Assembly: GCA_963772765.1 (NCBI GenBank)
Contig: CAVYYP010000013.1
Location: forward strand, 637,243 to 701,242
Source: Candidatus Bathyarchaeota archaeon
GTDB taxonomy: Archaea; Thermoproteota; Bathyarchaeia; Bathyarchaeales; Bathyarchaeaceae
DNA length: 64,000 nt
Direction of reading: 5' to 3'
Shown here: positions 3,462 to 40,789 of the stretch, piece after piece
Position numbering within the stretch: the first letter of the stretch is position 1
How the letters are laid out: each line of letters opens with the position of its first letter
Translations under genes and position numbers: made by a program
The notes under the pieces: generated by a model
What the model saw: the letters and a program-made list of their open reading frames with translations, nothing else
Databases searched by the model: none
Told to the model about the DNA's origin: nothing

Positions 3462-5174
3462 TTACAGCCCCACAACCGTGTCTTTAAGACCCTTACCAGG
3501 AGGAACCATCGGAAACACATCATCCTCTGGATTAATTGGGATATCAATGACAGTGGTCACTTCGCACTTTAAAGCATTGTCAACAGCACAAGACAGCTCA
3601 TCTAAGGAGCCAACACGAGTTCCCTCTGCACCATATGCCTGCGCAAGCTTCACAAAGTCTGGAACACTTCCCAGCTTCACAGCCGCATAACGTCCCTTAT
3701 AGAAAAGCCGTTGCCACTGAGCGACCATGCCCAGCACCGAATTGTTAAGTACAACAACAATTACTGGAATATCCTCTGTAACCGAAGTGCCAAGCTCCTG
3801 CTCTGTCATTCTGAAACTTCCGTCGCCTGCAATATCTACGACAGGACACTGCGGACAAGCCACTTTTGCTCCTATAGATGCAGGAAAACCAAAGCCCATT
3901 GTTCCCAGCCCACCTGAGCTGATGAATGTTCGGGGCTTGTATGTCTGGAAATGAAGTGCAGCCCACATCTGATTCTGACCCACCTCTGTCGCAATGATTG
4001 CATCTTTTGGAAGAAGCTTTCTTAGCCGTCTTAGAATCTTAGGAGATGTCATCTCGGTACTGCCAAGGTCCATTTCGCTAAGATACTTTTCTTTAACTTC
4101 CTGAACTCTGGTGACCCATGCATCATCGTCCTGCTTCTTTTTCAGCTTATTTACTAGCTGCTGCTGAATCATCCTTAAAGTTGGCTTGGCATCAGCAACA
4201 ATCGGCACCTCAACGTCGATGTTCTTTCCTATTTCTGCCGCATCAATATCGATGTGAATAATCTTTGCGTCAGGACAGAACGTGTCTAGTGTTCCTGTGC
4301 TTCTGTCTTGGAATCGTGTTCCGACAGCCAGCAAAACGTCAGCCTCCAAAATCATCTTGTTAGCCAACATTGTGCCGTGCATTCCAATGTTTCCAATAGA
4401 CAGTGGATGGTTTTCGGGGAAACAGCTTTTGCCCATAAATGTTGTAGCAACTGGAGCCATCAACAGTTCAGCAATCTGCAACAGCTCAGGAGAAGCATTG
4501 GAAAGGTTCACTCCTCCTCCAGCCAGTATCATGGGACGCTCTGCGCTTAGAAGTAGCTTAACTGCTCTTTTTACCTGAACTGGATGTGGTTCAGTGTTTG
4601 GTTTGTAGCCTCGTATTTGTAGATTTTCTGAGAAATCCATTTCTGCTTTTCCTGTTTGTGTGTCTTTTGGAAGGTCAATCAGGGTTGGTCCGGGTCTGCC
4701 TGTTGTGGCAATATAGAATGACGTTTTCACTGCTCGGGGGATTTCTGCTGGGCTTTTCACTTGAACGTTGTATTTGGTGATTGGTGTGGTTATGCCGATG
4801 ATGTCTGCTTCCTGAAATGCGTCTCGTCCAATCATGTATGAGGTATTAGCTGAATAGGCGTTAACCTGTCCTGTAAGCGCAATAACTGGAGAAGAATCTA
4901 GGTACGCGTTGGCTAGTCCTGTTACGATGTTTGTTGCTCCAGGACCTGATGTAGCCATGCAAACGCCTGGTCTGCCGCTTGCCCTAGCAAAGCCGTCTGC
5001 CATGTGTGCTGCACCCTGCTCGTGGCGAGCAAGAATGTGGCGTATTCCCGAGTCGTATAGGACGTCGTGGATTGGCAGCAGGGCTCCTCCAGATATTCCG
5101 AACATTACTTCTACTTTTTCTTGTTTTAGAGATTCTATGAGAGCTTGCGCTCCAGTCATTTTTGCCATTTTCAA
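3462..5174 (-). CDS. ilvB: acetolactate synthase large subunit (ThDP-dependent)
   Basis: 570 aa. N-terminus GAQALIESLKQEKVEVMFGISGGALLP and the ThDP motif GDGSF...NN are both present. Confidence 0.92.
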   Translation of the reverse strand: MKMAKMTGAQALIESLKQEKVEVMFGISGGALLPIHDVLYDSGIRHILARHEQGAAHMADGFARASGRPGVCMATSGPGATNIVTGLANAYLDSSPVIALTGQVNAYSANTSYMIGRDAFQEADIIGITTPITKYNVQVKSPAEIPRAVKTSFYIATTGRPGPTLIDLPKDTQTGKAEMDFSENLQIRGYKPNTEPHPVQVKRAVKLLLSAERPMILAGGGVNLSNASPELLQIAELLMAPVATTFMGKSCFPENHPLSIGNIGMHGTMLANKMILEADVLLAVGTRFQDRSTGTLDTFCPDAKIIHIDIDAAEIGKNIDVEVPIVADAKPTLRMIQQQLVNKLKKKQDDDAWVTRVQEVKEKYLSEMDLGSTEMTSPKILRRLRKLLPKDAIIATEVGQNQMWAALHFQTYKPRTFISSGGLGTMGFGFPASIGAKVACPQCPVVDIAGDGSFRMTEQELGTSVTEDIPVIVVVLNNSVLGMVAQWQRLFYKGRYAAVKLGSVPDFVKLAQAYGAEGTRVGSLDELSCAVDNALKCEVTTVIDIPINPEDDVFPMVPPGKGLKDTVVGL

Positions 5175-7489: not shown

Positions 7490-9148
7490 TTGAGAAGTGA
7501 TGCAGTTAAAGTTGGTTTTCAAAGAGCTCCTCACCGTGCCCTACTAAAGGCACTAGGACTTTCAGACGAGGACATCAAGAAACCGTTCATTGGTGTAGTA
7601 AACAGTTACACAAACGTGGTTCCTGGACACGTTCACCTACAGCAGGTAGCAGAAGCGGTAAAAGCAGGCATACGTAGCGCAGGTGGTGTTCCTTTCGAAT
7701 TCAACACAATAGGCATCTGTGACGGAATAGCTATGGGACACAACGGAATGCGCTATTCATTGCCTTCCCGAGAACTAATCGCAGACTCCGTAGAATCCAT
7801 GGTTCTAGCCCACAGATTCGACGGCATAGTCTTGATCACAACATGTGACAAAATAACGCCTGGAATGCTGATGGCAGCTGCCCGACTAAATATTCCCGCA
7901 ATAATGGTTACTGGAGGTCCAATGCTTTCAGGCAACTACAAGGGAAAGAAAGTGGGAACCGATTCTATGTTTGAGGCTATAGGCAAAGTTGCAGCAGGCA
8001 AAATGAGCGAAGAAGAACTGAAATGCCTTGAAGATGTTGCCTGTCCAACATGCGGCTCATGCAACGGGCTGTTCACAGCAAATACGATGGCGTGTGTAAC
8101 TGAAGCTCTTGGAATGTCCCTGCCCGGATGTGCCACTCCTGCCGCAATTAGTGCAGAGAGGATGAGAATGGCTCAGGCAACAGGAGAACGAATCGTTGGA
8201 TTAGTAAATGAGGACCTGAAGCCCCGAGACATAATGGTTTCTAACTCTTTTGAGAATGCAATAATGGTCGACATGGCTCTTGGAGGCTCAACCAACACTG
8301 TACTCCATGTTACGGCAATTGCGAACGAAGCAGGAGTAGACCTGCCACTATCAATATTTGACCAGTTGAGCAAACGTGTTTCACACCTTACCAACATGAT
8401 CCCTGCTGGACCATACGACATGCAAGACCTACATCAGGCAGGCGGAATTCCAGCAGTAATGAAAACATTAGAGGATTCGCTTCATCTTGACTCTGTTACC
8501 GTAACGGGAAAAACAGTCAAAGAAAACATTGCCCCTGCAAAAGTAACCAATCCTGAAGTGATTCACCCATTAGATAATCCTGTCCACAAGGAAGGCGGAA
8601 TCGCTGTTTTGTATGGAAACTTGGCAAAAGACGGCTCAGTAGTAAAGGCAGCAGGAATATCAGCCAACATGATGGTTCACAGTGGACCAGCCAAAGTTTT
8701 CGACTCTGAAGAAGACTCAATGAATGCAATCCTAAACAAGGAAATCAAGGAAGGCGACGTAGTTGTTATCCGATATGAAGGACCAAAAGGCGGACCAGGA
8801 ATGCGCGAGATGCTGTCACCTACGGCTTCTATAGCAGGAATGGGACTAAGCGAATCAGTTGCATTGATAACTGACGGACGCTTTTCTGGAGCAACAAGAG
8901 GACCATGCATCGGACACGTTTCCCCAGAAGCCGCCACTGGCGGAGCCATAGGCTTAGTAAAAGATGGCGATATCATAGAAATTGATGTTCCAAACAGAAA
9001 ACTAAGCGTAAAACTTAGCGATGAAGAACTGGCTAAACGTGCAAAATCTTGGAAACCAAAGGAACCTGCTGTCAAAACGGGTTATCTGTCTAGATATGCG
9101 CAGCTTGTTCAGCCTGCAAGCAAGGGAGCTGTCCTAAAACAGCTCTAA
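7490..9148 (+). CDS. ilvD: dihydroxy-acid dehydratase
   Basis: 552 aa with a TTG start. Contains [28 protein letters not shown] and PTCGSC (Fe-S ligands). Confidence 0.93.
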
Positions 9149-9168
9149 TCCACACCTTTTCTAGGTTT

Positions 9169-10356
9169 TCACTCGATTATGTTATGATACCATGTCAGAA
9201 TGTATTCTGGCAGGATGAGTCCTTTTTCGCTTAGTCTTGCTGTTAACAGTATTGGCAGACAGCTGAGCACATATGCTGCTCTCATGTAGAATCGTCTTGG
9301 TTTGCCCTTTTCCACTTTTTCTTCGAGCAGTATCTTTAGGTCAGAGTATATGTCAAGATTTGTTCCCTTGCGTCCGACAATGGAGAAGACTGTTCCGCCT
9401 ATTCCTTTGAATCTGTTGCACCAGCCAACAACAGGCTTTGTTCTTCCAGAGTAAGAAATCAAAATTTCTAGGTCACCCGCACGGGGATGTGGTGTGTTGA
9501 CTCCTCTGGCAATGTAAACGTTGTCTCCAAGAAACTTTTTGATGTGAAACAGCCTAACCGCAGTCATTTTTGCCACTTCTTCTGCTGTTCCTCTGCCGCC
9601 CAAGAAAATGTCGCTTCTTCTTTCAAGAAAATCCAAAACTTTCATCACTGCATGAGACTCGATTGCGTTTTCGGTAATTGACTTTAAATATGGAGCCTCT
9701 TCTGCAATGAGCTCAACTACGCGCTCTGCTGGGCTATCGTCAGCTATTGCTTCTGTTATCATCTGCAACAAAAACAGGCTGCCCAACTCAAAGATATCAC
9801 CCATTATTCCTGTCTCGCTGTAGGTGTCGGCTGCGGGCAACTGCTTTTTTTCTCTGCCCTCTACAACAACCACATGCCCATGCTGCTCAACAATCCTGGC
9901 AAGAGAAGAATTTTTGTTAGAGGTAAGCAGTCCCATAGAAAACTTTGTGCTGCCCGTCTCTTTCAGATACTTTTCAAGTTCCTCTGCTAGATGTTTAGGG
10001 TCATCAGATTCTCCGCTTCCAGAGCTGATAAGCAAAACTATCTTTTTGTGGCGTTTCTCAAGTTCTGAAGCCGCATCATACATTCCCCTTCCTGGAAAGC
10101 CAACATCTTCACGTGTGATAACAACTTTAGGCTCTTTCATCATCGCTATCTGGCTCATTGCAATGTTCAAGGAGTGGAGTGACCTTCCTGAGCCGCCGCA
10201 TACTATACAGTCTGCAGCTTTCAAATCATCGTATAGAGGTTGCAGTTTATTTTTTGTTATTTTTAGAAGATTTTTGTTAATTCGTTCGACGTACTCTACG
10301 GCAGAAATTTCTTGGCTAACTTTCGTCACCATCCATCTAAAACACAATGATTCCAT
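9169..10356 (-). CDS. tandem SIS-domain sugar-phosphate isomerase-like protein
   Basis: Two SIS-like halves are present. The first reads CGGSGRSLH...LLISSGSGESDD. The second reads GGRGTAEEVAKMTAVRLFH...ILISYSGRTKP. Confidence 0.55.
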   Translation of the reverse strand: MESLCFRWMVTKVSQEISAVEYVERINKNLLKITKNKLQPLYDDLKAADCIVCGGSGRSLHSLNIAMSQIAMMKEPKVVITREDVGFPGRGMYDAASELEKRHKKIVLLISSGSGESDDPKHLAEELEKYLKETGSTKFSMGLLTSNKNSSLARIVEQHGHVVVVEGREKKQLPAADTYSETGIMGDIFELGSLFLLQMITEAIADDSPAERVVELIAEEAPYLKSITENAIESHAVMKVLDFLERRSDIFLGGRGTAEEVAKMTAVRLFHIKKFLGDNVYIARGVNTPHPRAGDLEILISYSGRTKPVVGWCNRFKGIGGTVFSIVGRKGTNLDIYSDLKILLEEKVEKGKPRRFYMRAAYVLSCLPILLTARLSEKGLILPEYILTWYHNIIE

Positions 10357-20101: not shown

Positions 20102-20880
20102 TTATTGGTCGTTTGGGTCTTGTGGGTTTGTTCCTTTTGTGATTTCTTCGCTGTCTGTTAGTCCGTCTCCGTCTGTGTCTGGATTTTGTGGGTCTGTTCC
20201 ATAGTATATGTATTCCATTGCGTCCTCTAGTCCGTCTCTGTCAGTGTCGCTGTTGGGTTGTTCTTCTTCAAAATAGGGAGTTGGGAGGCAGGTGGTGCAT
20301 GGGTCGTTTGGGTCTTGTGGGTTTGTTCCTTTTGTGATTTCTTCGCTGTCTGTTAGTCCGTCTCCATCAGTGTCTGGATTTAGCGGATCAGTTCCATAGT
20401 ATATGTATTCCATGGCATCTTCCAATGTATCTCCATCAGAATCACCATTGGATGCTGTCTGCTCTTCCTCAACATAAGCTGTTGGGATGCAATGTGGTAC
20501 ATGGGTCGTTTGGATCTTGCGGATCTGATCCTTGTGTGATTTCTTCACAGTCTGTTAATCCATCTTCATCAGTATCTGGATCTTGTGGGTCTGTTCCATA
20601 GTATATGTATTCCATGGCATCTTCCAATGTATCTCCGTCAGAATCGCCGTTGGATTGTTCTTCTTCAAAATAGGGAGTTGGGAGGCAGGTGGTGCATGGG
20701 TCGTTTGGGTTTTGTGGGTTTGTTCCTTTTGTGATTTCTTCGCTGTCTGTTAGTCCGTCTCCGTCTGTGTCTGGGTTTTGTGGGTCTGTTCCATAGTATG
20801 TGTATTCCATTGCGTCCTCTAGTCCGTCTCCGTCAGAGTCACCATTGGCGACTGGTTGCTCTTTTTCAATGAGCATCCCA
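20102..20880. repeat. about 195-202-bp tandem DNA repeat, four copies
   Basis: The unit start GGGTCGTTTGG(G/A)TCTTG(T/C)GG recurs at about 20106, 20301, 20503 and 20698. Confidence 0.75.
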
Positions 20881-20969
20881 TTTTGATCAGAAAAAACCGT
20901 AGTTCCAAACATAAGCAAAATAACAAAAATAACTGCCAATGAAGTAACAATTATCTTGCTTTTTCTCAC
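20102..20969 (-). pseudogene. secreted Ca-binding (thrombospondin type-3-like) tandem-repeat protein, split by one frameshift
   Basis: A signal-like N-terminus (MRKSKIIVTSLAVIFVILLMFGTTVFS) is followed by four ~65-aa repeats: D(S/T)DGD(G/T)LEDAMEYIYYGTDPQNPDTDGDGLTDSEEITKGTNPQDPNDPCTTCLPTPYFEEEQ. ORFs 20469-20969 and 20102-20548 are the same gene in two frames, with an extra base near 20488-20495. Confidence 0.7.
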
Positions 20970-24468: not shown

Positions 24469-27070
24469 ATGCAAAAGCTAAATAAAATAAAAAAAATATC
24501 TATTATTGAGTTTGTTATTTTTTTCTTTATATTAGTCACATTGATCCCTATTGGCAGTGCTCAAGTAGATGGAGCTCATGGACTACACACTACTGCTGAA
24601 GATACAGGTTCAGTACCACTTCCAGCTGGAGTCACTCCTGACATTACAATTAAGACTGATATCTATCTAAGTTTCAGACCAAATCCTGTAGGAATAAATC
24701 AAATATTTCTAGTCAATCTTTGGAATGACCCAGGTCCCTCATATGCTCGATTTTTTAGAGATTATAAAGTGTCACTTATGAGACCTGATGGATCAGTAGA
24801 AGAAATATTCATTGATTCTTATCCAGCTGACGGGACTGCATGGTTTGAATACATAGCTGATCAAATAGGCGAATGGCAAATAAAATTCGAATTCCCCGGA
24901 GGTTACTTCCCCGCTGGAGACTATAAAGTAACATCTGGGTCACAGTCAGGCTATGTCGAATCCTACACCAAATCAGTCTACTATTTACCTGATTCAACAG
25001 AATGGCAACCACTGACGGTCCAAGAGGATATTGTATACTCATGGCCTGAACCAGGTCTTCCAACTGACTACTGGACTAGACCCGTGTCTCCAGAGAACAG
25101 GCATTGGTATCCAATTCTAGGAAATTATCCATGGCACGGACCAGGAGTAGCAGCAGACTGGCCAGCAGACACTAACAGAATTTGGAACAGCCGTCAAATG
25201 TTTACTCCATATGTACAAGCTCCAAACTCAGCTCACATAGTGTGGGACAGAGCTGAAGGTATATCTGGTGTCATGGGTGGAGATTATGGCTCTAAATCGC
25301 AGACTCAAGGAGGAAACACACCTAGCATAATTTATGTTGGAAGATGCTATGACTCAAAAACAAGAGTATATAATGGTGAAACCCAAAGTGTTTGGACATG
25401 CACAGATCTCAGGACAGGTGAAGTGTACTGGGAACGAACAGATGTATCTGCACCATCGTATATCGAATATTCTGAAGGTTCCGAATCTGTTCCTGGTGCC
25501 GAAGCTTCGGTGGGTGTCTCAGTAAGTCTGTTACGGATAGCGGGAAATCGGCTACAAAAATTCAATCCTGCAACAGGGGATATGACTTTAGATCGTGAAA
25601 TTCCTGCTTTTAGGTCTACAGAATACTATCGAAATGGTTACGTGCTAAGTACCTCAAGTGATTAGTGATGAGAATAAGGTATTTCGTCTGATCAATTGGA
25701 CAACGTTAGGCTCTACGAGCAACTTTGCCAGCAGAGTTGTAAGTAATATCAGTTTTCCGATGGACACTTTAGGACAGTCTCGAGATTACAATGCAATGGT
25801 AGCATTTGTATTTAGAGAAACAAATGCATGGGATGCCAATGGACTAAAACCAATTAGCGGATTCCCATACGTTAATATCACTATCGATGGTGGAACTGGA
25901 ATTAGACATGGTTTCAGAGTAATTGCTGCAGATCTACTTAACAGGACAATGGTTATACAACAATACTTATGATGATGAACCATACAGTGCAGCACAAATG
26001 CCATACAGCCAATCTTGTCACATCGCTGAAAATGGAAAAGTAGCAATACTAATGCGCAAAGGTTACTTCAATTTCTACGATTCAAGGACAGGACAATTCC
26101 TATACCAATCAGAAACAATGGATTATCCATGGGATGAACCAGGATTTGGTGCATACAACATAGCTTCCGCTTATGGAATGATTTTCAGAGGCGGTTATGG
26201 TGGTGTTTACGCATTTGACTGGGACACAGGAAAAATTGTTTGGAAATATGAACAAGTAGCACTTAGCCAATATGAGACACCATATATCAATGAAGAGGGA
26301 GTCACCGTTTACTCTTGGAACGGAGGAGTCCAAGTAGCTGATGGTAAGGTATTCTGGCAAAACAACGAACACACACCAACCCAACCTATAACTAGAGGAT
26401 GGGGACTACACGCAATAGATGCTTACACTGGAGAAGGCGTTTGGAACATCACTTCAATGATGTCACCAGGAGCTGTAGCAGACGGATACTTAACCGCATC
26501 ATGTAACTATGACGGTTCAACATATGTCTTTGGAAAAGGCAAAAGCGCAACTACAGTAACAACTCCTGACGTCGCAGTTCCAAAAGGAACAGCATCACAA
26601 TCAAAGGAACAGTTCTTGATCAATCGCCAGCGCAATCAGATACTCCATGTGTATCCAAAGATTCGATGACAACTCAAATGGAGTACATTGCATCTTCCAG
26701 CAACCAATCGATGGACTTATGGGGCAATGAAATAATTACAGGTGTTCCTGTAACATTAACTGCAATTGGCGAAGATGGAACATACGTAGATATTGGAACA
26801 ACTACACAGAAGGATATTCTGGAACATTCGGAAAATCTTGGATTCCAACAGCAGAAGGCACATACAAAATTATTGCTTCATTTGCAGGAGACGATTCTTA
26901 CGGTAGTTCTTCAGCAACAACTTGGGTTACAGTTGGTCCAGCGACGCAGCAGGCGGAGCAATAGAACCAGAACACCCACTAATCAGCACGACATGGCAAT
27001 CATAATTGCTGTAATCGCAGTTGCAATAATAGCAGCAGTCGCATATCTAGCGCTACGGAGACGAAAATAA
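24469..27070 (+). pseudogene. large beta-propeller-type surface protein, paralog 1 (at least 4 frame breaks)
   Basis: ORFs 24469-25665, 25658-25972, 25923-26669 and 26666-27070 are colinear with the paralog at 41150-43765. Shared stretches include LPAGVTPD..LSFRPNPVG, LTVQEDIVYSWPE..LPTDYWTRP, RLINWTT.GS.SNFASRVVSN and ETMDYPW. It has a signal-like N-terminus and a C-terminal TM helix ending LRRRK. Confidence 0.7.
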
Positions 27071-27516
27071 ACCAAAATTTTCCCTCCCTCTTTTTTGGGA
27101 GTAAAATAAAGTTTAGAAGAATAATGGAGAGCTGAAAGGATTCAATCGCAAAGATTAAGCATCTTTCTCATCCTTTAAGATTGCTTTTTTGTGATTGCTC
27201 ACTCATCAACAACTGTGATTGAGTCTCAGCAAATCTCCATCATTCTAATTATTTTAATCAAGCTATGCGCGGCGCGCATGATTTGTTTGATTAACAACTA
27301 TGTAAAGAGTTCCTTTACATCATCGAGTTGATTTCGAATATTGCGATAAACGCTAGAAAAGATGTAGAAAGATCCTAATGGTTTTAGTTGGTATTCAATC
27401 CAAAGAAAGAATGGATTTCACTCTCCAACTGAATATATAAGAGGTAATGGAACTTGGAAAGGCGTTTCAATCCTTGTTTAATGGATTTCTTCCGCCGACT
27501 GTGCTCGCATGGAGTT

Positions 27517-27559
27517 GGATAATAATAAACAGACAAAAAATGAGTGTTCATTATTATCC
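27517..27559. other. perfect stem-loop inside the 77-nt 'spacer'
   Basis: GGATAATAAT (27517-27526) pairs with ATTATTATCC (27550-27559), with a 23-nt loop. Confidence 0.8.
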
Positions 27560-27628
27560 GATGATCTGGTTTTGCCGTTTCAATCCTTGTTTTAATAAAT
27601 TTCTTCTGCCGACAATATCAATTTTCAC

Positions 27629-27680
27629 GGATGAGGAGGAGGACGCAGAAAATTTTTTTCCTTCCCCCTCCTCCTCATCC
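27629..27680. other. perfect stem-loop inside the 98-nt 'spacer'
   Basis: GGATGAGGAGGAGG (27629-27642) pairs with CCTCCTCCTCATCC (27667-27680), with a 24-nt loop. Confidence 0.8.
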
Positions 27681-28243
27681 ACAAAGAATTTCACACCTAA
27701 ACGACTACCCCGTTTCAATCCTTGTTTTAATGGATTTCTTCCGCCGACCTGACGTCTATGCTGACCTTGTTGACATGAAAAGCAGCATCTTCCCTGATTC
27801 TGCGATTGTAACAATTCGAGACTCTGGATTAGGATACTGGGTAGAATTCGTGGAAGATTCAGAGGTTCTGGATATTATGCAAATGTCAGGCGACGCATGC
27901 CAATCATATCCGGCTGTACATCACAGCACTCTTTATGTCGGCAATGTTTACGCTCTGATAGAGTTTATTCCGCCTCCAAATCGGTTTCCTGCGCCTCCGC
28001 TTTGATTGTTTTTGCGTAAAATCTATCAAGCCAGCCGCTCTACATTATACTGGTGGGTGTTCTTGACAAACTATTGTTGTCCAGAATGCGGTGGGACTAA
28101 AGTCACATGGAGCATGAGACTCAAAAAGGCTGTTTGTCCAAAAGATAACACGCCTGTAAGCGAATTCATTCTCCGCTAGCATCTCACATTCTGGCATGTA
28201 CTAAAACGCAGTTGGCAGCGTCAGTTGATTATGGGAAAATCTG

Positions 28244-28642
28244 CTATTTTATCAGCTCTTTTAGAGTTTCTGCCTCTTCTCTGAGTGCAGCCACTTCTTC
28301 CTCAAGAGTATCTAGTCTTTCGGTTGCTGCTGTTCGCAGGTTCTTTATTTCTTCTAGCAGTTTTCTTTTCTGTTTCTTCAATACTTCAAGCTTTTCCAGT
28401 CTGCCGGTCGGTAAATCCAGTTGTTCGTCAAGTTCGTTTTCTGGAGCCGTAGCGTCCGCATGAAGGTTGATTACTGGCGGGTATGATGGCTCTTCTTTTA
28501 CAACTTCAATTTTTGTTAAACAGTATGGGCAGGCGTAGTACGTGACTTTGTCTTCTCCAACAGAAAAGTTGGTTACCCAAATCGGATTATCGAACTCTTT
28601 TTGACAAGATATACAGGGACATTTATGCTTCATGCTTACCAA
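28244..28642 (-). CDS. zinc-ribbon plus coiled-coil protein
   Basis: The N-terminus has CPCISC...CPYC (four Cys). The C-terminus is heptad-like: LEKLEVLKKQKRKLLEEIKNLRTAATERLDTLEEEVAALREEAETLKELIK. Confidence 0.55.
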   Translation of the reverse strand: MVSMKHKCPCISCQKEFDNPIWVTNFSVGEDKVTYYACPYCLTKIEVVKEEPSYPPVINLHADATAPENELDEQLDLPTGRLEKLEVLKKQKRKLLEEIKNLRTAATERLDTLEEEVAALREEAETLKELIK

Positions 28643-28794
28643 GCTCTATTTTCGTGTATTTTGAATATTATCGTTGCTACTTATTGTGTAATAGTTTAGT
28701 ATTAACAATATATCATTTTTCGACAGGTGCAGCCAATTTTTTGATGTGTCAAATTCTGTAATAACCAATATATTCACTTTGAAGGTGCCGTTTT

Positions 28795-28986
28795 ATGATC
28801 AAGATGATGCCCCTAGACGAACTAAAGAAAAAGATCCAAAAACTTCAAACAGAACGAGCAAAACTCAACGACGAAATCGACAGACTGAAACTAGAAGCCG
28901 ACGATAAATCTATGCAGCTACAGCAAGAGATTGAATCTCTACAGGAAGAGGCAAATTCCCTAAAAGAAATCCTGGAAAACAACTAA
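28795..28986 (+). CDS. small coiled-coil protein, paralogous to the C-terminus of 28244-28642
   Basis: 63 aa. ELKKKIQKLQTERAKLNDEIDRLK...LQEEANSLKEILENN shares the ending L(R/Q)EEA(E/N)(T/S)LKE with the neighbouring protein. Confidence 0.45.
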   Translation: MIKMMPLDELKKKIQKLQTERAKLNDEIDRLKLEADDKSMQLQQEIESLQEEANSLKEILENN

Positions 28987-29046
28987 CCTAACTGTGTGGC
29001 TGAATAATGCCCGAGCTTCACTCATTTGGTTCTGGACTGCCCTAGG

Positions 29047-29259
29047 CTAGGCTGCAAACAGTCTTGGATACGCCAAGTTTTCTTGGATTCGTCGAATGTT
29101 CTGTTCGGTTACGCCCAAGTTTTTGAGGAGCTTTAGCAGATCCGAAATGTTGACGACTTTCTTGCAGTCCTGACAGACCCTTAGTTCAGCGTAATATCTG
29201 GAAATTTTTCCTTTACAGTCTGGACATTCAAATAACAACGTTCTCCCCCAACAAAACAT
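29047..29259 (-). CDS. small zinc-ribbon protein
   Basis: 70 aa with CPDC...CQDC. Confidence 0.45.
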   Translation of the reverse strand: MFCWGRTLLFECPDCKGKISRYYAELRVCQDCKKVVNISDLLKLLKNLGVTEQNIRRIQENLAYPRLFAA

Positions 29260-29302
29260 ATGTCACTACGGCTAGATATGCCTTTTCAAACAATCTAAAG
29301 GC

Positions 29303-29542
29303 TCATTTTTGTTTTTCAAGTTTGGCTACTTTCTTTTCCAAAGCCTCAATCTTTTTGGTCAAAGCGTTCATCTGCTTTTTCTGCTCCAACTGAAGGTTCT
29401 GTTTCTCTCGTTTCTGCTGTGCAATCTGCTCCTGAAAATAGCTGAACGTTTGCACCACCGAATTCATGCACGATTGGCATGCATGTTGCTGTTCTTCTTT
29501 TTGTCTATTCGAAACATCAACGCCAGACATTACAGACCACAC
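29303..29542 (-). CDS. small coiled-coil protein
   Basis: 79 aa with CQSC, then QQKREKQNLQLEQKKQMNALTKKIEALEKKVAKLEKQK. Confidence 0.4.
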   Translation of the reverse strand: MWSVMSGVDVSNRQKEEQQHACQSCMNSVVQTFSYFQEQIAQQKREKQNLQLEQKKQMNALTKKIEALEKKVAKLEKQK

Positions 29543-29720: not shown

Positions 29721-32327
29721 ATGAGAAAAACACGAACACTTCAACTCTGCCTAATTATTACAGCAACCATGATGCTACTTGTATCAAATTTTGTTCCAAG
29801 TGCACAACTAAAGGTTAATGCACAGAACGTCACTGGCACTTCGGCTGAAAGCAACCAGAGTCTGCTACAATATGAGTGGCCACAATTTGGAGGCAATGCG
29901 TCTACTTCACGGTTTTCGCAAGGTCCTGCGCCTTCAACTTCTAAAATTGTTTGGAAAGCCAACATAACAGACATTAGAAGCTTCATTGCAGCGTTTAATG
30001 GCATGGTTTTTGCGTGTTCGAACACTTCAGTTATTGCTCTTAACCCTGAAAATGGGGCAACCATTTGGGAAACTGAAGTTCCGATGAATGGAACATGGCC
30101 AATAGCATACAAAATCGACAGCACTCACATGCTTGTGGAAGGCACCTGCCTAGAAACACAGACTGGAGATATTTTATGGTCAAGTTCTTCGTTTTCTGCA
30201 GACACAGGAAACTTCAACCTTAACGTTTACAGTCCAGAAGAGAAAATGTTCTACGTCAAAAAACTCTCATATGTTGAAGCATGGGACTTTTCTGACCCCT
30301 CAACACCTCCAACACAGGTATGGAAAACGTATGTTCCCGGCGGCGGCAGGGTTGGCTCGGGAATAACTTATGGAGACGGCAAAGTGTTTCCCGGGTCTTT
30401 TGAAGACCTTCAGATGGCAATAGACGCCAAGACGGGCGACGTTCTTTGGACTACCCGCACAAAAACACCGATGATTTTCTCTGGCGCATACTCTGACGGA
30501 AAGTTTGTTCGCGGAGGCACAGACGACAACACAATGTACTGTTTCAACGCCACAAACGGTGACATCCTTTGGACTTACAACCCAGGAACAGACGGCTACT
30601 TCACTATCGGATGTGCAATCGCATATGGCATGGTCTATGAGCCAAACAAGGACGGAAAAATTTACGCCATAGACATAGACACGGGAGAGCTGGTTTGGTC
30701 ATATCAGGGACCAGGAACGATGCTATTTCCTGGAATGCCTACCGTTGCAGAAGGAAAGGTTTACGTCACGAGTGGTCAGGATGCGACTTTTGGTGCTCAT
30801 CCTACTGCTTCAGAGTTTGTGTGCTTGGATGCCTACACTGGCGATGTCATCTGGAAGCTTGCTGTTGAAGCGTTTGCGCCCAGAGAATCTATAGCCATTG
30901 CCTATGGAATGATGTTTATGATTCCAGGTGATGTAACCACAGCTGTTGATTCGTATTCTGGGAGCGAGTATACTACTAAGGGTCAGGTTTGGGCTTTCAG
31001 TGATGATTTGTCTCAGATTAATGGTTCTTGGTCAATGTTCAGAAGTGATGCAGAACGTTCCTCTATTGGCAACTTAGGTCCAGCAAACCTGACGATGGAA
31101 TGGAAATATACCACTGAGGGGGCTGTGATGTCTTCGCCTAGTGTTGTGGATGGCGTTTTGTATGCTGCTTCACAGGACAAGAACGTTTACGCAGTTAATG
31201 CGTGGAGCGGCAGTTTAATTTGGAAATTTGAGACAGAGGGCACTATCGAGTCTTCGCCAGCGGTTGTGGATGGAAAGGTTTTCATTGGAAGCGACGACGG
31301 CTACGTTTATTGTTTAGACTCTCTTAGTGGTGGTCTTGTTTGGAGACGATTTGTCCATGGCGACTTGCCGATTACTTCGGGAGCCGCTGTTATGCTTCGT
31401 TCTTCGCCTGCGGTTGTTGATAATATAGTGTATGTTGGGTCTGTTGACGGAAACCTGTACGCTCTTGACGCGGATGACGGCGACGTGTTGTGGACGTTTG
31501 ATACGACAGGAATAATTACGTCGTCTCCGGCAGTGGCGGATGGTGCCGTTTATGTTACTTCCGAAGAACCAAACGAAGGCGCCCTGTACAAGTTAGATGC
31601 ATATGATGGAAATTTGGTATGGAAGTTGCCTCTTGCGTATGAGCATCAGTTTACTGGCGGAACAGACATGCAGGGTACTCCCACGGTGGCGGATGGTATG
31701 GTGTTTGTTTCCACTAACATGCGGACATATTACGGTGTTAATACGGTTTCTGGAGATGTTGTTTGGACGTTTACGAACCCTCAGGCAACAGAATTCATTG
31801 TCTCTGCTCCGATTTATGTTGAGGGCAAGCTGTATGTTATTGACAAGTTTGACATAGCATGCCTGAATGCTTCTACAGGAAAGAAAATTTGGGGTTCATA
31901 TTCCGGAGATGAGCTTTATGTTTCGCCATCTTATGCTGACAACAGAATATACGTGGTCACCAGCCAACGTCACATCTTCATCATAGACGCTACGACGGGA
32001 GACAACTTTTTGGCATACACAACACCGTCTGCAAGCTGGTCCTCCCCAACCCCAATCAACGGAAGACTATACATAGGAAACAACGACTGGAACATTTACT
32101 GCCTAACAACAGCAGTCAGCTCCAATCCATCCGCCAGCACCGACGAGCCATCACCAAACGACGATGAACCCACACAAACCCCTGATGAGCCTTCAGCACC
32201 AACTGACGGAGAACCAGACGCTGAGCCCACAGAAGACAACTATCTTGTGCTAATTGGAGTCCTTGTAGTGATAGCTGTGGTTGTAGTTGCAGCTTATGCT
32301 TACTTTAGGCTGCGTAAACACAAATAA
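29721..32327 (+). CDS. PQQ-like beta-propeller repeat surface protein (signal peptide, C-terminal TM anchor)
   Basis: 868 aa and intact. Many repeats of the pattern G.(V/I)Y..S.DG.(V/L)YA(L/V)(D/N)...G..(L/I)W. A P/E/D-rich linker is followed by LVLIGVLVVIAVVVVAAYAYFRLRKHK. Confidence 0.85.
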   Translation: MRKTRTLQLCLIITATMMLLVSNFVPSAQLKVNAQNVTGTSAESNQSLLQYEWPQFGGNASTSRFSQGPAPSTSKIVWKANITDIRSFIAAFNGMVFACSNTSVIALNPENGATIWETEVPMNGTWPIAYKIDSTHMLVEGTCLETQTGDILWSSSSFSADTGNFNLNVYSPEEKMFYVKKLSYVEAWDFSDPSTPPTQVWKTYVPGGGRVGSGITYGDGKVFPGSFEDLQMAIDAKTGDVLWTTRTKTPMIFSGAYSDGKFVRGGTDDNTMYCFNATNGDILWTYNPGTDGYFTIGCAIAYGMVYEPNKDGKIYAIDIDTGELVWSYQGPGTMLFPGMPTVAEGKVYVTSGQDATFGAHPTASEFVCLDAYTGDVIWKLAVEAFAPRESIAIAYGMMFMIPGDVTTAVDSYSGSEYTTKGQVWAFSDDLSQINGSWSMFRSDAERSSIGNLGPANLTMEWKYTTEGAVMSSPSVVDGVLYAASQDKNVYAVNAWSGSLIWKFETEGTIESSPAVVDGKVFIGSDDGYVYCLDSLSGGLVWRRFVHGDLPITSGAAVMLRSSPAVVDNIVYVGSVDGNLYALDADDGDVLWTFDTTGIITSSPAVADGAVYVTSEEPNEGALYKLDAYDGNLVWKLPLAYEHQFTGGTDMQGTPTVADGMVFVSTNMRTYYGVNTVSGDVVWTFTNPQATEFIVSAPIYVEGKLYVIDKFDIACLNASTGKKIWGSYSGDELYVSPSYADNRIYVVTSQRHIFIIDATTGDNFLAYTTPSASWSSPTPINGRLYIGNNDWNIYCLTTAVSSNPSASTDEPSPNDDEPTQTPDEPSAPTDGEPDAEPTEDNYLVLIGVLVVIAVVVVAAYAYFRLRKHK

Positions 32328-36395: not shown

Positions 36396-37348
36396 TCAAA
36401 AATATTCTCCTAATAGTTCATGTCTTTTTTCTATAGAACTTTTTGCAACTGCAGCTTGTGAAATGTAATACTGAAAATCCATTAGTTTTCGATATTTTCT
36501 GTCATAATCTAAGCCTTTTCCAGATTCAATTCGCAATTTATTAATAAATTTGATGTAAAACTCAGCAAAAATCTGTAATTTTTCTATTTCTTTCTTAATA
36601 ATTAACTCTTCAAAGAAAAGATAAGCTGAAACTATTGAAGCCCTATTTCGAAAATCCTCAGCATTTTCTCCAAAATATTTGTTCATATAATTTAGTGTCA
36701 CTTTAATTCTCTCAATCTCCACTCCAAATTTTTTCAAATTCGCATATTGTTCAAAGAAGCGTTTCAAGTCTCTAAATCTTGCAGAATAAAAACTATCTTG
36801 TAGCGAACGGTAAAAAGAATTTATGCATATTTGGGCGATAAACAGTTTCTTTTGCAAATCTCCTCTCAGGTATATTCACTTTAATGAAAAATGGGTGTTC
36901 TTTTCCAACTTTAAAAACAAAATCTCTAATATCTCCTTTCATTGCATGTAAGTTTAAAATTGCATTTAGGGGAGAACCTAATTGTAACCTTTGAAAAGAG
37001 AAGTCTCAAATCATCCTCTTCAGCTTTGGTTATAATAGCAACTGTGAATTTATACTCGAAAAGGTCATTTCGCTCATTTTCTGGCAATTGGTCGATGTTT
37101 CTTCCATCTAAAAGAGTTAATTCACCACTAAAAAATTCAATTATCGAAACAATACGTTGTTGTCCATCAACACAGTCATAGGTTTCAGAATCATCTGCTT
37201 TATACAAATACAGCTTAGGTATATCCAGTCCCCTTTGCATGGAATCTATTAGTTTTTTCTTCAAAGTTGATTCCAAACTGTTGGTTCTCTTTGATAATCT
37301 GGATATTGTATTAGGTTCCTCTTGGAATACAATTTTTTTGCGGACCAT
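36396..37348 (-). pseudogene. DUF262 (ParB-like nuclease superfamily) protein with two apparent frameshifts
   Basis: The DGQQR motif is present (YDCVDGQQRIVSIIEFF). After ...EDDLRLLF the conserved continuation QRLQLGSPLNA...GKEHPFF lies in another frame, with the shift at a T4 run on the minus strand. ORF 36396-36857 supplies the helical C-terminus. Confidence 0.65.
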
Positions 37349-37383
37349 TCTTTTATTGTTCTAATCATTTCTAATTGCCAAAT

Positions 37384-38412
37384 CTAATCGCCTAGGAACA
37401 TGTCAACATAGTTCAAATTCATTTTATCAATCGGAATGTGCTTATCTAGGAAAACTTGAATGTATCTTTTTAACCAATCTTCATAAACATTTTTGGATTT
37501 ATACTCTACTAAATCTTGACAGTTAGGTAATTCTCCTAGGACTTTCACTTCTTTAAGGAAACCATTATTTTTTCTAATTTCTTCTCCACCTTTGTGGCTT
37601 TTTATTAATTCAATTTGATAAGGTCTTTCAGCTCTTAATTGAGTCTTAAAAAGTAAGGACAATAACCCCCAATCATTTTGACTAAGAGAACAACCTACAA
37701 TTCTTAGTTTATCACAATCAAGTAGCTCGAATGCTTTGCCCCATAACATATTAAAAGGATATCTTTCTCGTTGTTTTTCCACACCCGGAGGAATCCACAA
37801 CATTTCACTTCTTTCCTTTGCTTGATTTTCATCTATTTTTGTTGACGGTATGCCACTCTTCCAATTGAAAGACCCATGCAATTTAATTAATGGCAAACAA
37901 TCATAAATCAGATTATATGTTCCCGATTCGCAATTACATTTAATACCATAATTTACCCCATTTAAAACGTTCTGACAAGCTTGGTCTAATAAACTATCAT
38001 AGTTGACAGTAATTAATCCTGTAAGTTGTTCTATTTTTTTAACTTCTTCAATTTCATGTATTTGTAGTAATGTCATTGTAAGTATGGGGTCAATAGTTTT
38101 ATCGTCCAGTAATAATTTATCTTCTATTATGTCACAGAATATACTTTTGAGCTTACTTGCTGCATCTGAATATCTTTGTATGCTCATAGATTCTAATAGA
38201 CTTATGTAAATTTCAATATCTGTTATATCATCTGTTGCAATGTTGCCTAAAACATCTGCCAAATCACGGTCCTCAATTGCCTTTTCTACAACTAACTCAG
38301 ACACAGCCCGCAAAGAAAGAGATTGTTCTATGCCCGAGTAAGAGGCTTCAGCCATAGTTGAACCAGCACCAAATAGGTAAACAATTCTTTCGGGGGAGGC
38401 ATAAATAGGCAC
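37384..38412 (-). CDS. SIR2-like (SIR2_2-type) protein, candidate NADase effector
   Basis: Sirtuin-fold motifs appear in order: LFGAGST (GAGxS), TVNYDSLLD (TxNxD), LIKLHGSFNW (catalytic HG), then RIVGCSLSQNDW. 342 aa and intact. Confidence 0.7.
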   Translation of the reverse strand: MPIYASPERIVYLFGAGSTMAEASYSGIEQSLSLRAVSELVVEKAIEDRDLADVLGNIATDDITDIEIYISLLESMSIQRYSDAASKLKSIFCDIIEDKLLLDDKTIDPILTMTLLQIHEIEEVKKIEQLTGLITVNYDSLLDQACQNVLNGVNYGIKCNCESGTYNLIYDCLPLIKLHGSFNWKSGIPSTKIDENQAKERSEMLWIPPGVEKQRERYPFNMLWGKAFELLDCDKLRIVGCSLSQNDWGLLSLLFKTQLRAERPYQIELIKSHKGGEEIRKNNGFLKEVKVLGELPNCQDLVEYKSKNVYEDWLKRYIQVFLDKHIPIDKMNLNYVDMFLGD

Positions 38413-38596
38413 TTATTGAAATAAAGTATTTCTTAAAATATAAAATAGTTCTCTTGAGAATGTTTTATCGCTTTTTCCTTTGTTCTTTATGCTTTTCAAT
38501 TTGGAAGTGATAGCTATTCGTGATTCAGAAGTTTTAATTACAATATAAGAAGAAATCACATAACAGTGAAAGAATAATTAGAAAAGGGGTTATCTG

Positions 38597-39352
38597 ATGG
38601 ATTATTCAGAGTTTGTAAAAAAGCTCAAGGATATTGAAAAAATGGGATTCATCAAATCCCATCGGAAAGGTTCAACAGGAATAGGAAAAACATTAGAAGA
38701 CCTTCTTGGAATAGCTGAAAATAATATTCCAGGTCCTGACTTTTCAAAACATGAACTAAAAAGTGCAAGAAAAAATTCTAGTTCTATGCTAACTCTATTC
38801 ACTAAAGCTCCTCTTCAAAAAGGAGCTAATAATCAATTACTTGAAAAATGTGGTTATCAACAGCGTAAAGTCCCCATAGATTATCAACAATTTGACTCTT
38901 TTCTAGGAACAAAAAAAGAAGGTGAAAATAATATTCCTTTGTATGAAAAAGAATTGCATTCAACAGTTGACGCTATTAAGCCCAACGCTCAAAATTTGAT
39001 ATTAAGAATAGTGGGTAACAAATTGATTATTGGAAACGATAAGGACGTGGATGCATATTATGAAAATAACATTTTGAAAGAAACCTTTGAAAAAAAATAT
39101 AATAAACTTGTGTATGTTTTGGCTGAAAATAAGAAAGAGAAGGGTGAGGAATTTTTTTGGTTTAATGAGGCATATCATCTTGATGGTTTTAGTTTCGAAA
39201 GATTTTCAACATTAGTTGATGAAGGTTTATTGAAAGTTGACCTACGTATGGGACATTATTCGAATGGTCGACCTCATGACCATGGAACAGGTTTCAGAAT
39301 AATGCCTAGATATTTACCTAGATGTTTTGAAAAAATTGAGACCATATTATGA
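38597..39352 (+). CDS. MvaI/BcnI-like type II restriction endonuclease
   Basis: GFIKSHRKGSTGIGKTLEDLLGIAENNIPGPDFSKHELKSARKNSSSMLTLFTKAP matches my recollection of the MvaI_BcnI family N-terminus. It is convergent with a methyltransferase. Confidence 0.6.
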   Translation: MDYSEFVKKLKDIEKMGFIKSHRKGSTGIGKTLEDLLGIAENNIPGPDFSKHELKSARKNSSSMLTLFTKAPLQKGANNQLLEKCGYQQRKVPIDYQQFDSFLGTKKEGENNIPLYEKELHSTVDAIKPNAQNLILRIVGNKLIIGNDKDVDAYYENNILKETFEKKYNKLVYVLAENKKEKGEEFFWFNEAYHLDGFSFERFSTLVDEGLLKVDLRMGHYSNGRPHDHGTGFRIMPRYLPRCFEKIETIL

Positions 39353-39417
39353 TTATTTTGGCGGTCTCCAGAAATCGAGAAATATATTCCATTGTTGCTC
39401 CTAAAGAGATGAAATTA

Positions 39418-40269
39418 TTAGGCCAACCAAATATTCCAACTCGATTTACAAGATTCCTTTTTATCCCAAATGAAAGTATTTCTGAATTCAAATCCCGCTT
39501 TCTCTAACGCATCTATTACATAAGCATGTGTCACATACCTTTTATTTTTCCACCAAACATCATTTATATTAACTATACAATGTGCTTTTTCTTTCATTAG
39601 AGGCAAGATTCCTGCGTAAATTTCTTCTAAGGTTTCTGCATATTGTTGGTAATTCATTATACCTAAATCTCTAGGGTCTTTGGAATACTGCTGAACTTTC
39701 AAATATTGACCGTTCTTACGTTCATCTCCTCTGATGCTTTTATTCAATCTTTTTCGATTTAGCATATTAGCATAAGGTGGAGAAGTTATACACAACGAAA
39801 CGGTGTTCTCTTCTAGATATTCAGGAATGTTTTTTGCATCATCAACAATGCCTAATTGTTGAGTTTCAATTCCAAATCTAGTTTGGCTAAGTCTTTCTTT
39901 TGCGACCTCTATGTAACCTTCATGCAAATCAAAACCTAAAGCATTTCTTTTCAAATCTTGAGCAGCAATTAATGTAGTTCCAATTCCAACAAATGGGTCC
40001 AAAACAAGTTCTCCCTCATGGGTAAGAACTTCAATAAAATGAGCAGGAAGAGAAATAGGGTAAACAGCGGGATGAACATTCTTATCTCGAACATCTCTCC
40101 CAGTGTAATAAAATTCTTTGATTGTAACCATTCCTTTAACCCATTCTTTTGCAGTAATACAACTAATATGATTAGTTTGACAATCACAAGTTTTTTTATG
40201 GGCAATTGCTAGCTTCTTGTTTTCCACTTTTAGAGCCTTCTTAAACAGTCTTTCCAAATTAACTATCAC
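39418..40269 (-). CDS. DNA methyltransferase (SPPY-type, probably N4-cytosine)
   Basis: Motif I is LDPFVGIGTTLIAAQ and motif IV is ITSPPYANM. 283 aa. Confidence 0.8.
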   Translation of the reverse strand: MIVNLERLFKKALKVENKKLAIAHKKTCDCQTNHISCITAKEWVKGMVTIKEFYYTGRDVRDKNVHPAVYPISLPAHFIEVLTHEGELVLDPFVGIGTTLIAAQDLKRNALGFDLHEGYIEVAKERLSQTRFGIETQQLGIVDDAKNIPEYLEENTVSLCITSPPYANMLNRKRLNKSIRGDERKNGQYLKVQQYSKDPRDLGIMNYQQYAETLEEIYAGILPLMKEKAHCIVNINDVWWKNKRYVTHAYVIDALEKAGFEFRNTFIWDKKESCKSSWNIWLA

Positions 40270-40352
40270 TATTCATATACTTTTGGAAATATGAGTTCTG
40301 TGTTTATCTTCTTGGACTCCGAAAACTAAAACCTAAAGGTTCTAAGAGTTTA

Positions 40353-40490
40353 ATGATTTTTCAAATTTTTCCTCTGAAAGAAAGCTTAGTTTGGGCGCTT
40401 AAACGGGAAATAAAGGCTTTAGAACAAATGAATCATGAATCAGAGGATAAATCTGAGGTTCTTAGTGAAGCTTCTTCTAAAGAAGGTTCA
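40353..40490 (+). pseudogene. Int(N) fragment of the split integrase
   Basis: The ORF MIFQIFPLKESLVWALKREIKALEQMNHESEDKSEVLSEASSKEGS runs in frame into the att repeat (WWAGPDLNRRPSARQ). The same att translation precedes Int(C) at 35426. Confidence 0.6.
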
Positions 40491-40568
40491 TGGTGGGCCG
40501 GACCGGATTTGAACCGGCGACCTTCTGCACGTCAAGCAGATGTCCTAACCGAACTAGACGACCGGCCC
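40491..40568 (-). tRNA. tRNA-Val (anticodon GAC), with encoded CCA
   Basis: Sequence: GGGCCGGTCGTCTAGTTCGGTTAGGACATCTGCTTGACGTGCAGAAGGTCGCCGGTTCAAATCCGGTCCGGCCCACCA. A cloverleaf folds by hand. The anticodon loop is TTGACGT. Confidence 0.9.
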
Positions 40569-40712
40569 TACAGCCATTTTAGGATGCTTTTCTCGTATTT
40601 AAGTTTCAGTTTCTTTCAGGCACCCAAACATAAGCATTAATATGCCAAACTGAGGAAATGATTTTCCCATAATGCTTAATAGCGTTCCTGTCAGGTTTAA
40701 AATATCAAAAAT

Positions 40713-40789
40713 GGGCGGATAGATCAGCCTGGAAGATCGCAACGTTGGCATCGTTGAGGCCGCGGGTTCAAATCCCGCTCCGTCCACCA
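40713..40789 (+). tRNA. tRNA-Ala (anticodon GGC), with encoded CCA
   Basis: Sequence: GGGCGGATAGATCAGCCTGGAAGATCGCAACGTTGGCATCGTTGAGGCCGCGGGTTCAAATCCCGCTCCGTCCACCA. The G3:U70 pair is present. The anticodon loop is TTGGCAT. Confidence 0.9.

Follow-up and report, generated by a model that had tools for sequence, protein, structure and literature searches.

The stretch of DNA analysed here (the window; 64,000 nucleotides of the chromosome of an uncultured sediment archaeon of Candidatus Bathyarchaeota, contig CAVYYP010000013.1) holds on its minus strand, at 27391-27748, a short CRISPR-like array. This locus raises the question of what an array can be whose segments between repeats measure 98, 77 and 34 nt and which has no CRISPR-associated (cas) gene around it. 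The explanation that we prefer, with moderate confidence, is an orphaned, decaying type I-B mini-array in which the two youngest units carry palindromic inserts, and which is not a working immune locus.

We examined first of all the nature of the repeats. Read in the minus-strand sense, the array has the order R3, S98, R2, S77, R1, S34, R0 (Table 1), and the first-pass annotation, which had reported three near-identical repeats of 36-37 nt, a degenerate copy and gaps of 34, 77 and 98 nt, is correct in all coordinates and sequences. R1, R2 and R3 are 92-100% identical to each other, and the fourth unit is degenerate. A scan of the window with the 37-mer at up to three mismatches gave 2 matches, compared to 0.00 expected (100 shuffles). 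Each of the four units is recognised on the minus strand by the Rfam model RF01320 (CRISPR-DR7, referred to as DR7), which is curated and independent of the window; only R3 exceeds the gathering score of 37. R3 contains an AAUCC/GGAUU stem and the 8-nt tag AUUGAAAC, and its 3′ 25 nt are a perfect copy of the family core. As the DR7 model matches these units, and the stem and the AUUGAAAC tail are its structural core, the units are genuine CRISPR repeats with the minus strand as the sense strand. The transcribed sense proposed earlier thus agrees both with the strand of the DR7 matches and with the orientation of cas-adjacent arrays, and the degenerate copy lies, as had been suggested, at the trailer end, where DR7 places R0.

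Table 1. Features of the array locus and its surroundings (positions in the window).
Feature	Position	Strand	Description
R3	27712-27748	-	37 nt, GTCGGCGGAAGAAATCCATTAAAACAAGGATTGAAAC; leader-proximal repeat; DR7 44.9 bits
S98	27614-27711	-	98-nt inter-repeat segment
S98 hairpin	27629-27680		24-nt arms; layout 31 nt + 52-nt palindrome + 15 nt
R2	27577-27613	-	37 nt, middle repeat; three substitutions relative to R3; DR7 29.2 bits
S77	27500-27576	-	77-nt inter-repeat segment
S77 hairpin	27517-27559		15-bp stem, 13-nt loop with U6; layout 17 + 43 + 17 nt
R1	27464-27499	-	36 nt, third repeat; one loop A deleted; DR7 35.1 bits
S34	27430-27463	-	34 nt, the sole spacer of ordinary length; unstructured, minimum free energy (MFE) 0
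R0	27391-27429	-	39 nt, GTTGGAGAGTGAAATCCATTCTTTCTTTGGATTGAATAC; degenerate terminal repeat at the trailer end; DR7 19.7 bits
Upstream (leader-side) flank	27749-28243	-	probably non-coding; GC 0.45; no gene in source annotations
Trailer side	27071-27390		AT-rich, GC 0.35
PQQ beta-propeller pseudogene	24469-27070		four open reading frames in shifting frames, apparently a single surface protein with C-terminal membrane anchor, frameshifted; adjoins the array
Strain-variable segment	21636-27755		array at its right edge; unrelated sequence instead in L006/L107

It is extremely unlikely that the units are not CRISPR repeats at all, being either a dispersed repeat similar to a miniature inverted-repeat transposable element (MITE) or a plus-strand tandem repeat that codes for protein. 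A plus-strand open reading frame (ORF) of 101 codons (27447-27752) does run through the three repeats, but this is the expected by-product of in-frame repeats and no gene, and the units match a curated CRISPR repeat family and are 35/37 identical to cas-adjacent repeats. Further copies in the 64-kb window were not found by mismatch scans or nhmmer. The first-pass annotation had itself considered a dispersed, MITE-like unit that never occurs beside cas genes; we found the family beside cas genes, and no dispersed copies in the window or in exact-repeat scans of viral, genome and metagenome collections. A degenerate repeat suspected by eye at ~27139-27176 received no support from nhmmer.

The 3′ 25-nt core of the repeat is cosmopolitan, being found in arrays of Clostridia, Desulfobacterales, Methanosarcina, Bathyarchaeia and others. 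Because of this, the kinship with methanogen arrays suggested earlier holds for the core only, and the whole repeat is closest to those of bathyarchaeial type I-B arrays. The nearest full-length repeat is GTCGGAGGATGAAATCCATTAAAACAAGGATTGAAAC, which is 35/37 identical to R3 (two mismatches) and is present 47 times in L041 and three times in L104 (L numbers denote contigs or loci fetched for comparison). One-off variants of it are present in L056, L101, L100, L040 and L089, and nearly all of these contigs are labelled Bathyarchaeota or Bathyarchaeia. The arrays in L056, L041 and L104 lie directly after a type I-B operon, cas4-cas8b-cas7-cas5-cas3 (example type I-B arrays: JANKMU010000028, CAVTBV010000001 and CAZRCD010000001), so that the check for this repeat beside cas genes in relatives, proposed earlier, was positive for the 35/37-identical form. 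The exact 30-33-nt repeat had no match in IMG/VR, GTDB genomes or JGI metagenomes and, hence, a cas-linked array with that very variant could not be found. As for the host, the ribonucleotide reductase encoded in the window is 80-83% identical to Candidatus Bathyarchaeota or Bathyarchaeum proteins, and its PQQ-propeller proteins belong to a large bathyarchaeial family; judging from its encoded proteins, the host chromosome is bathyarchaeial and not that of a methanogen.

The array is an orphan. Scanning about 65 ORFs, chiefly of at least 100 aa, with Pfam, NCBIfam or PADLOC revealed no cas genes in the window, and tblastn of the window with Cas4, Cas8b, Cas7, Cas5 and Cas3 from the closest type I-B operon gave no match, which supports the earlier statement that the 64 kb contain no cas gene. 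Within the window, the cas-free range extends over 27.4 kb on one side of the array and 36.3 kb on the other. Canonical bathyarchaeial type I-B leaders are 81-89% identical to each other over 300 nt, with a GC content of 0.32-0.33, and the flank upstream of R3 shows no similarity to them and no cas remnant. An archaeal promoter for the array was not evident by eye. This flank includes a putative plus-strand ORF (27775-28005), within which a contig from another sample, L109, lacks 44 nt (27827-27870); this deletion speaks against the ORF being a gene and for a non-coding 500-nt flank. In summary, the array has neither cas genes nor a canonical leader in the window, and it is located at a strain-variable breakpoint of a bathyarchaeial chromosome.

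We then compared the long segments with the spacers of the same repeat family (n = 730, from arrays fetched via the family core). These have a median length of 36 nt, with 99% of them at 32-45 nt and none of the 730 at 59-123 nt, which places S77 and S98 out of range. The first-pass annotation had offered a decaying array with repeat loss as one explanation. Decay is indeed visible (a degenerate R0, a deletion in R1 and three substitutions in R2), but repeat loss as the source of the long spacers was rejected, since neither S77 nor S98 contains a repeat remnant (no DR7 match at E up to 5) and two spacers with a repeat between them would measure ~107-110 nt. S77 and S98 share no similarity, and neither resembles any other part of the window or any of the loci fetched for comparison. 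A 101-nt "spacer" in L105, considered as an analogue, proved to be a scaffold gap.

Each of the two long segments contains a hairpin. Among short-range inverted repeats in the 64 kb, these hairpins take the first two places, that of S98 (62 nt when wobble pairs count) ranking first. Both start with GGAT and end with ATCC, and have purine-rich arms with a three-base periodicity and loops with A6-7 or U6. When the palindrome is removed from S77, 17 + 17 = 34 nt are left, which is exactly the length of S34; its removal from S98 leaves 36 nt (62 nt removed) or 46 nt (52-nt perfect core removed). Each abnormal unit looks like a spacer of approximately normal length plus a looped-out palindrome. Among ~110 terminal or solitary units of the family, only three have a stem of at least 12 bp within the 100 nt downstream, and one of these is L110, a second allele of the locus (see below). 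This rarity, and the top rank of the two hairpins in the 64 kb, indicate that the association of hairpins with repeats at this locus is real.

The locus differs strongly between strains. Samples in which this organism occurs are JGI 3300031371 and 3300076657, ERR11523667 and SRR8556600. Six contigs from other samples than that of the window carry the gene for the 129-aa protein that flanks the array, and as far as the first repeat their identity to the window is 97.6-99.8%. In L110 (JGI 3300031371) and L111 (SRR8556600), the same flank leads to a single repeat, GTCGGCGGAAGAAATCCATTAAACGAGGATTGAAAC, followed immediately by a different, 12-bp hairpin, which is similar in design to those of the window. 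Beyond this hairpin, the second allele (allele B, the array of the window being allele A) continues into the left part of L006, a contig of a sister metagenome-assembled genome (MAG; GCA_964474255.1, CAYYRR010000046.1). L006 has 100 N (3971-4070) in place of 170 nt that include the solitary repeat and hairpin, and the apparent absence of the array in this MAG is, as L110 shows, a gap artefact. L109 breaks off within its first repeat, which is of the R1 type with the same A deletion; L109 and L111 both end in or just after a repeat, assemblers breaking at this locus. In L114, which is 83.5% identical in the flank, synteny extends to ~27770 and is followed by divergence without any repeat. At least three states of the locus thus exist, namely the array (allele A), a solitary repeat with a hairpin (allele B) and no repeat (L114). 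The first repeat is present at the same site in four samples, the content downstream of it is not, and strains 97.6-99% identical in the flank differ right after the first repeat. The segment 21636-27755, which includes the array at its right edge, is thus strain-specific (Table 1). This variable side contains pseudogenes in both alleles, the frameshifted PQQ gene in the window and, in allele B, what was read by eye only as a broken membrane-protein ORF (L006 3700-3970).

The position of the array exactly at the edge of the strain-variable segment and at a synteny breakpoint would fit the remnant of a mini-array, or of a cluster of RNA anti-CRISPRs (Racrs), which a virus or mobile element brought to an insertion hot spot and which outlasted the decay of that element. 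A mobile-element remnant was among the first proposals for this locus, and its location at a breakpoint agrees with this. The array has at most ~21 nt of upstream sequence of its own and lacks the canonical leader, a defence or restriction-modification (R-M) island and tRNA genes lie nearby, and viruses of Bathyarchaeia have been reported to carry mini-arrays of four repeats and three spacers (PMC10541130). Units of the family are also present in many IMG/VR contigs: the 21-nt 3′ core is present in 35 of them (L001-L005, L010-L039), for the most part in solitary units that have kept only the stem and tag, with an unrelated 5′ half. However, a search of 17-42 kb, including the surroundings of the tRNA genes, revealed no viral hallmark gene (integrase, capsid, terminase or other), and the left boundary of the variable segment (21636) has neither a second repeat nor an att-like copy. 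Moreover, no viral relatives of the flanking 129-aa protein were found, and no protein-level similarity was seen between the window and the five viral contigs tested. We therefore regard a viral or mobile origin as unlikely.

The repeats themselves contain information on the order in which the array was assembled. C6 and A10 are common to R1, R2, R3, the allele-B repeat and the L109 repeat, whereas R0 keeps A6 and T10, as in canonical bathyarchaeial repeats; C6 and A10 are thus derived. Over its 5′ 20 nt, R0 is one to three mismatches away from canonical bathyarchaeial variants and five from R3. Growth would have been polar, by duplication of the first repeat as in normal arrays, and the two long units would have been added once the first repeat had acquired its private C6 and A10 substitutions, presumably by Cas1-Cas2 encoded elsewhere in the genome. 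Having been added after the mutation of the first repeat, the long units are the youngest ones, and the clean 37-nt copies that flank each insert may be read as a signature of integrase-mediated growth. The palindrome may have come with the prespacer, extruded as a cruciform, with the ruler of the integrase still measuring ~35 bp. Alternatively, it may have arisen afterwards, by template switching or insertion. Our literature search found no described precedent for palindrome-bearing spacers of this kind.

Youngest units of abnormal length between clean repeats, and strain differences directly after the first repeat, as at a live growing end, could also point to an active array, which would use cas genes encoded elsewhere and whose adaptation would take over-long palindromic prespacers, for example after a loss of Cas4 trimming. 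We consider this very unlikely, given the lack of a canonical leader, the absence of comparably long spacers among the 730 family spacers, whose arrays are adjacent to cas genes, the mutations already present in R2 and R1, the lack of protospacers (see below) and the sister alleles, which hold fewer units and not more.

We also looked at the folding of the locus on both strands. For the whole S98, the sense strand (that of the CRISPR RNA, crRNA) gives -38.9 kcal/mol (z-score, z, -5.5) compared to -29.8 for the antisense strand, and for the isolated S98 hairpin, -38.0 compared to -29.8 kcal/mol. The two strands of the whole S77 are about equal (-20.5 sense and -21.6 kcal/mol antisense), although the z-score favours the sense strand (-4.65 vs. 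-3.05), as does the isolated S77 hairpin (-19.1 vs. -15.2 kcal/mol), the stem of which is unbroken on the sense strand only, through one G.U pair. The values are -18.8 and -16.5 kcal/mol for the allele-B hairpin, and -110.1 (z -4.4) and -89.4 kcal/mol (z -2.7) for the whole locus. This difference between the strands is due to stem imperfections of the transition type, which pair as G.U on the sense strand but are mismatched (A.C) on the antisense strand. The strand bias fits selection on an RNA, but equally a strand-biased C>T mutation of a transcribed locus, and the sample is small. Models of C/D-box small RNAs (sRNAs) or microRNAs scored far below their thresholds on the hairpins. The ATG AGG AGG AGG in an arm of S98 was considered as a CreTA-like element and rejected, as it has no Shine-Dalgarno sequence and no nearby target; in addition, AGG is probably not a rare codon in this organism, and the palindrome by itself accounts for the motif.

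These hairpins could be the functional part of the locus, if Cas6 sites in the repeats released them as tagged RNAs that act as host-encoded, Racr-like decoys titrating Cas6, Cas5 and Cas7, as cr-like regulators or as Cas6-matured sRNAs, which we consider possible but doubtful. If the cell has a type I-B Cas6, this enzyme would cut transcripts of the minus strand 8 nt before the end of each repeat, and, since the stems and tags of R3 and R1 are intact, cleavage into tagged hairpin RNAs is predicted. The products would be AUUGAAAC-tagged RNAs with a stable hairpin, which could occupy Cas6 and Cas5 but are unlikely to provide a normal Cascade guide. Several observations agree with this: the stem and 8-nt tag are also intact in the allele-B repeat, the non-random hairpins occur in two different alleles, all three isolated hairpins and the locus as a whole favour the sense strand, with the imperfections appearing there as G.U pairs, and at least four samples have retained the first repeat with its flank. 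There is, moreover, a precedent in the Racrs (PMC10651486), and viruses carry solitary units of this family, one with the exact bathyarchaeial repeat (L001) and one with a unit and a 16-bp hairpin (L010). On the other hand, strains with 99% identity in the flank have different hairpin sequences, and the relative with 83% identity there lacks the element, which argues against a conserved function. The stem of R2 is weakened, two of its three substitutions being C>U changes in the 5′ stem arm that leave only G.U pairs there, and this stem alone no longer folds (MFE 0). No promoter was evident by eye, no cas genes adjoin the array, unlike in known cr-like RNAs, and no partial target of the segments was found in the window. 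Repeat-like sequences have been reported to be depleted elsewhere in genomes (10.1101/2023.03.03.530964).

The host itself might use such a cassette, distant from cas genes, with the repeats as Cas6 maturation sites for hairpin RNAs that would titrate or tune its own Cascade or Cas6 and be the host's counterpart to the RNA anti-CRISPRs of viruses, or with the hairpin looping out of an otherwise normal 34-36-nt guide; we consider this rather unlikely. As to the idea of co-opted Cas6 sites around structured RNAs, raised in the first-pass annotation, the non-random, sense-favoured hairpins speak for it, and the lack of conservation between the alleles speaks against a conserved function.

The preferred reading, an orphaned mini-array in decay, is carried by the state of the locus. 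It is decaying and rearranging, with a degenerate R0, an indel in R1, a weak stem in R2 and sister strains at a single repeat, and this combination of decay and rearrangement speaks against a working immune array. Some observations do not sit well with this reading. The 8-nt tag has not changed in any of R1-R3 or in the allele-B repeat, and R3 retains a perfect 3′ 25 nt. All three isolated hairpins favour the crRNA-sense strand, by 2-8 kcal/mol, and there are three independent palindromes beside the repeats, for which no mechanism can be named from known biology. Finally, allele A is seen in this one assembly only, and a search of other assemblies via the products of the neighbouring pseudogene found none on record.

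Comparison of the segments with viral and plasmid sequences, as had been proposed earlier, did not identify a source for them. No protospacers were found in phage and plasmid collections or in exact IMG/VR scans, where the queries included S34, the 5′ part of S98, and S77 both without its hairpin and as the hairpin alone; the sampling of bathyarchaeial viruses is poor. No target of S34 was found, and within the window none of the segments had a partial target above chance. Nucleotides 5-24 of S34 (27440-27459) match the viral contig L005 (357-376) at 19 of 20 nt (E 0.004), which does not cover the full spacer and is probably due to chance; L005 itself has a two-unit mini-array with the same core. 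Nucleotides 16-34 of S77 (27517-27535, an arm of the hairpin) match the cas3 coding sequence at 18/19 (L056:5745-5763 and L041:1968-1982, E ~0.04). This is the only cas-related similarity of any segment and is probably a chance match in AT-rich sequence.

L001 (IMGVR_UViG_3300031643_000032), a contig of a head-tail virus with portal and large terminase matches, carries one exact solitary bathyarchaeial type I-B repeat (9265-9301), in the same orientation as the flanking genes and overlapping the stop codon of the ORF 8971-9276. This repeat is a candidate Racr-like RNA anti-CRISPR of a Bathyarchaeia virus. In L010, the viral unit is followed 22 nt later by the 16-bp hairpin, which is GC-rich.

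Around the array, the trailer side contains a perfect palindrome at 27265-27279 (ATGCGCGGCGCGCAT) and, at 27300-27320, an 8-bp hairpin, and the array neighbourhood as a whole is unusually palindrome-rich. An intact 868-aa paralogue of the PQQ pseudogene is encoded at 29721-32327. Between them, at 28006-29542, lie small zinc-ribbon and coiled-coil ORFs (57, 129, 63, 70 and 79 aa) without an informative family match, the 129-aa protein being labelled RPC12/RpoP-like by one source; this cluster is kept across bathyarchaeial species, with 66-74% nucleotide identity in L117 and L120. A defence or R-M cluster (36396-40789) comprises an N-terminal GmrSD fragment, a SIR2-like gene (37384-38412), an MvaI/BcnI endonuclease and an N4/N6 methyltransferase, and adjoins tRNA-Val (40491-40568, minus strand) and tRNA-Ala (40713-40789, plus strand). 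In the distant relatives L117 and L120, this tRNA pair abuts the small-ORF cluster at 29.0-29.6 kb, which indicates that 29.6-40.5 kb is an island. Further away, two adjacent ORFs at 20102-20969 encode bacterial TSP3 calcium-binding repeats, with 54-nt DNA repeats inside and a unit count that differs from the sister MAG's. Otherwise, the window is an ordinary chromosomal region, with ilv and leu genes, IleRS, ribonucleotide reductase and the his operon.

Orphan and degenerate arrays are common, and the bare existence of such an array is ordinary. What is unusual here is the presence of three different hairpins, across two alleles, beside the repeats of one locus, the restoration of a normal spacer length when the palindrome is removed (exactly for S77, approximately for S98) and the rapid turnover of the locus between near-identical strains. 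If the palindromes did enter with the prespacers, this would be new information on what a type I-B integrase accepts, with a cruciform being measured by the same ruler. If hairpin RNAs are indeed made here and cut by Cas6, they would be a host-side example of repeat-mimic RNAs, of which the known ones have so far been viral. To our knowledge, the CRISPR biology of Bathyarchaeia is almost unstudied.

Compared to known systems, the locus is closest to the bathyarchaeial type I-B arrays (RF01320), with which it has in common a repeat identical at 35/37 positions, the stem, the loop, the AUUGAAAC tag, the orientation, a degenerate terminal repeat and one spacer of normal length. It differs from them by the absence of a cas operon and of the conserved 300-nt leader, by having only 3+1 repeats, by its palindromic spacers of 77 and 98 nt and by its position at a strain-variable breakpoint. 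Cr-like mini-arrays and standalone repeats, such as CreA of CreTA, CreR and crlRNAs, are found in or beside cas loci, with spacers of 15-60 bp that match a nearby promoter in part (Shmakov et al., 10.1101/2023.03.03.530964; PMC8501985; PMC9458426). Like them, the locus has few repeats, a degenerate downstream repeat, no leader and a probably non-immune role, and R1-S34-R0 corresponds to two repeats with one short spacer; however, the R3-S98-R2-S77 part does not fit, there is no cas gene within 27-36 kb, the other segments measure 77 and 98 nt, and no partial target was found in the window.

The Racrs (PMC10651486) resemble the sister allele in L110 and L111, where the repeat is solitary, as are same-family units on IMG/VR contigs, including L001, and the predicted product would, by analogy, bind Cas6 without a normal guide. 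Here, in contrast, the locus is chromosomal, has no viral genes around it and is a cluster of three units (3+1), not a solitary one. Mini-CRISPR arrays carried by viruses (Medvedeva et al. 2019, as cited in PMC10651486; Chiyouvirus of Bathyarchaeia, PMC10541130) are described as ordinary repeat-spacer units, some of them with exact targets. The locus shares with them about four repeats and three spacers, the lack of cas genes and the repeat type of the host and, going by these descriptions, differs from them in being chromosomal, in its palindromic over-long inserts and in having no detectable targets. In summary, the kind of locus, a type I-B CRISPR array, is already known, its palindromic over-long units are unusual, and the locus most likely represents a relic in decay and not a new system.

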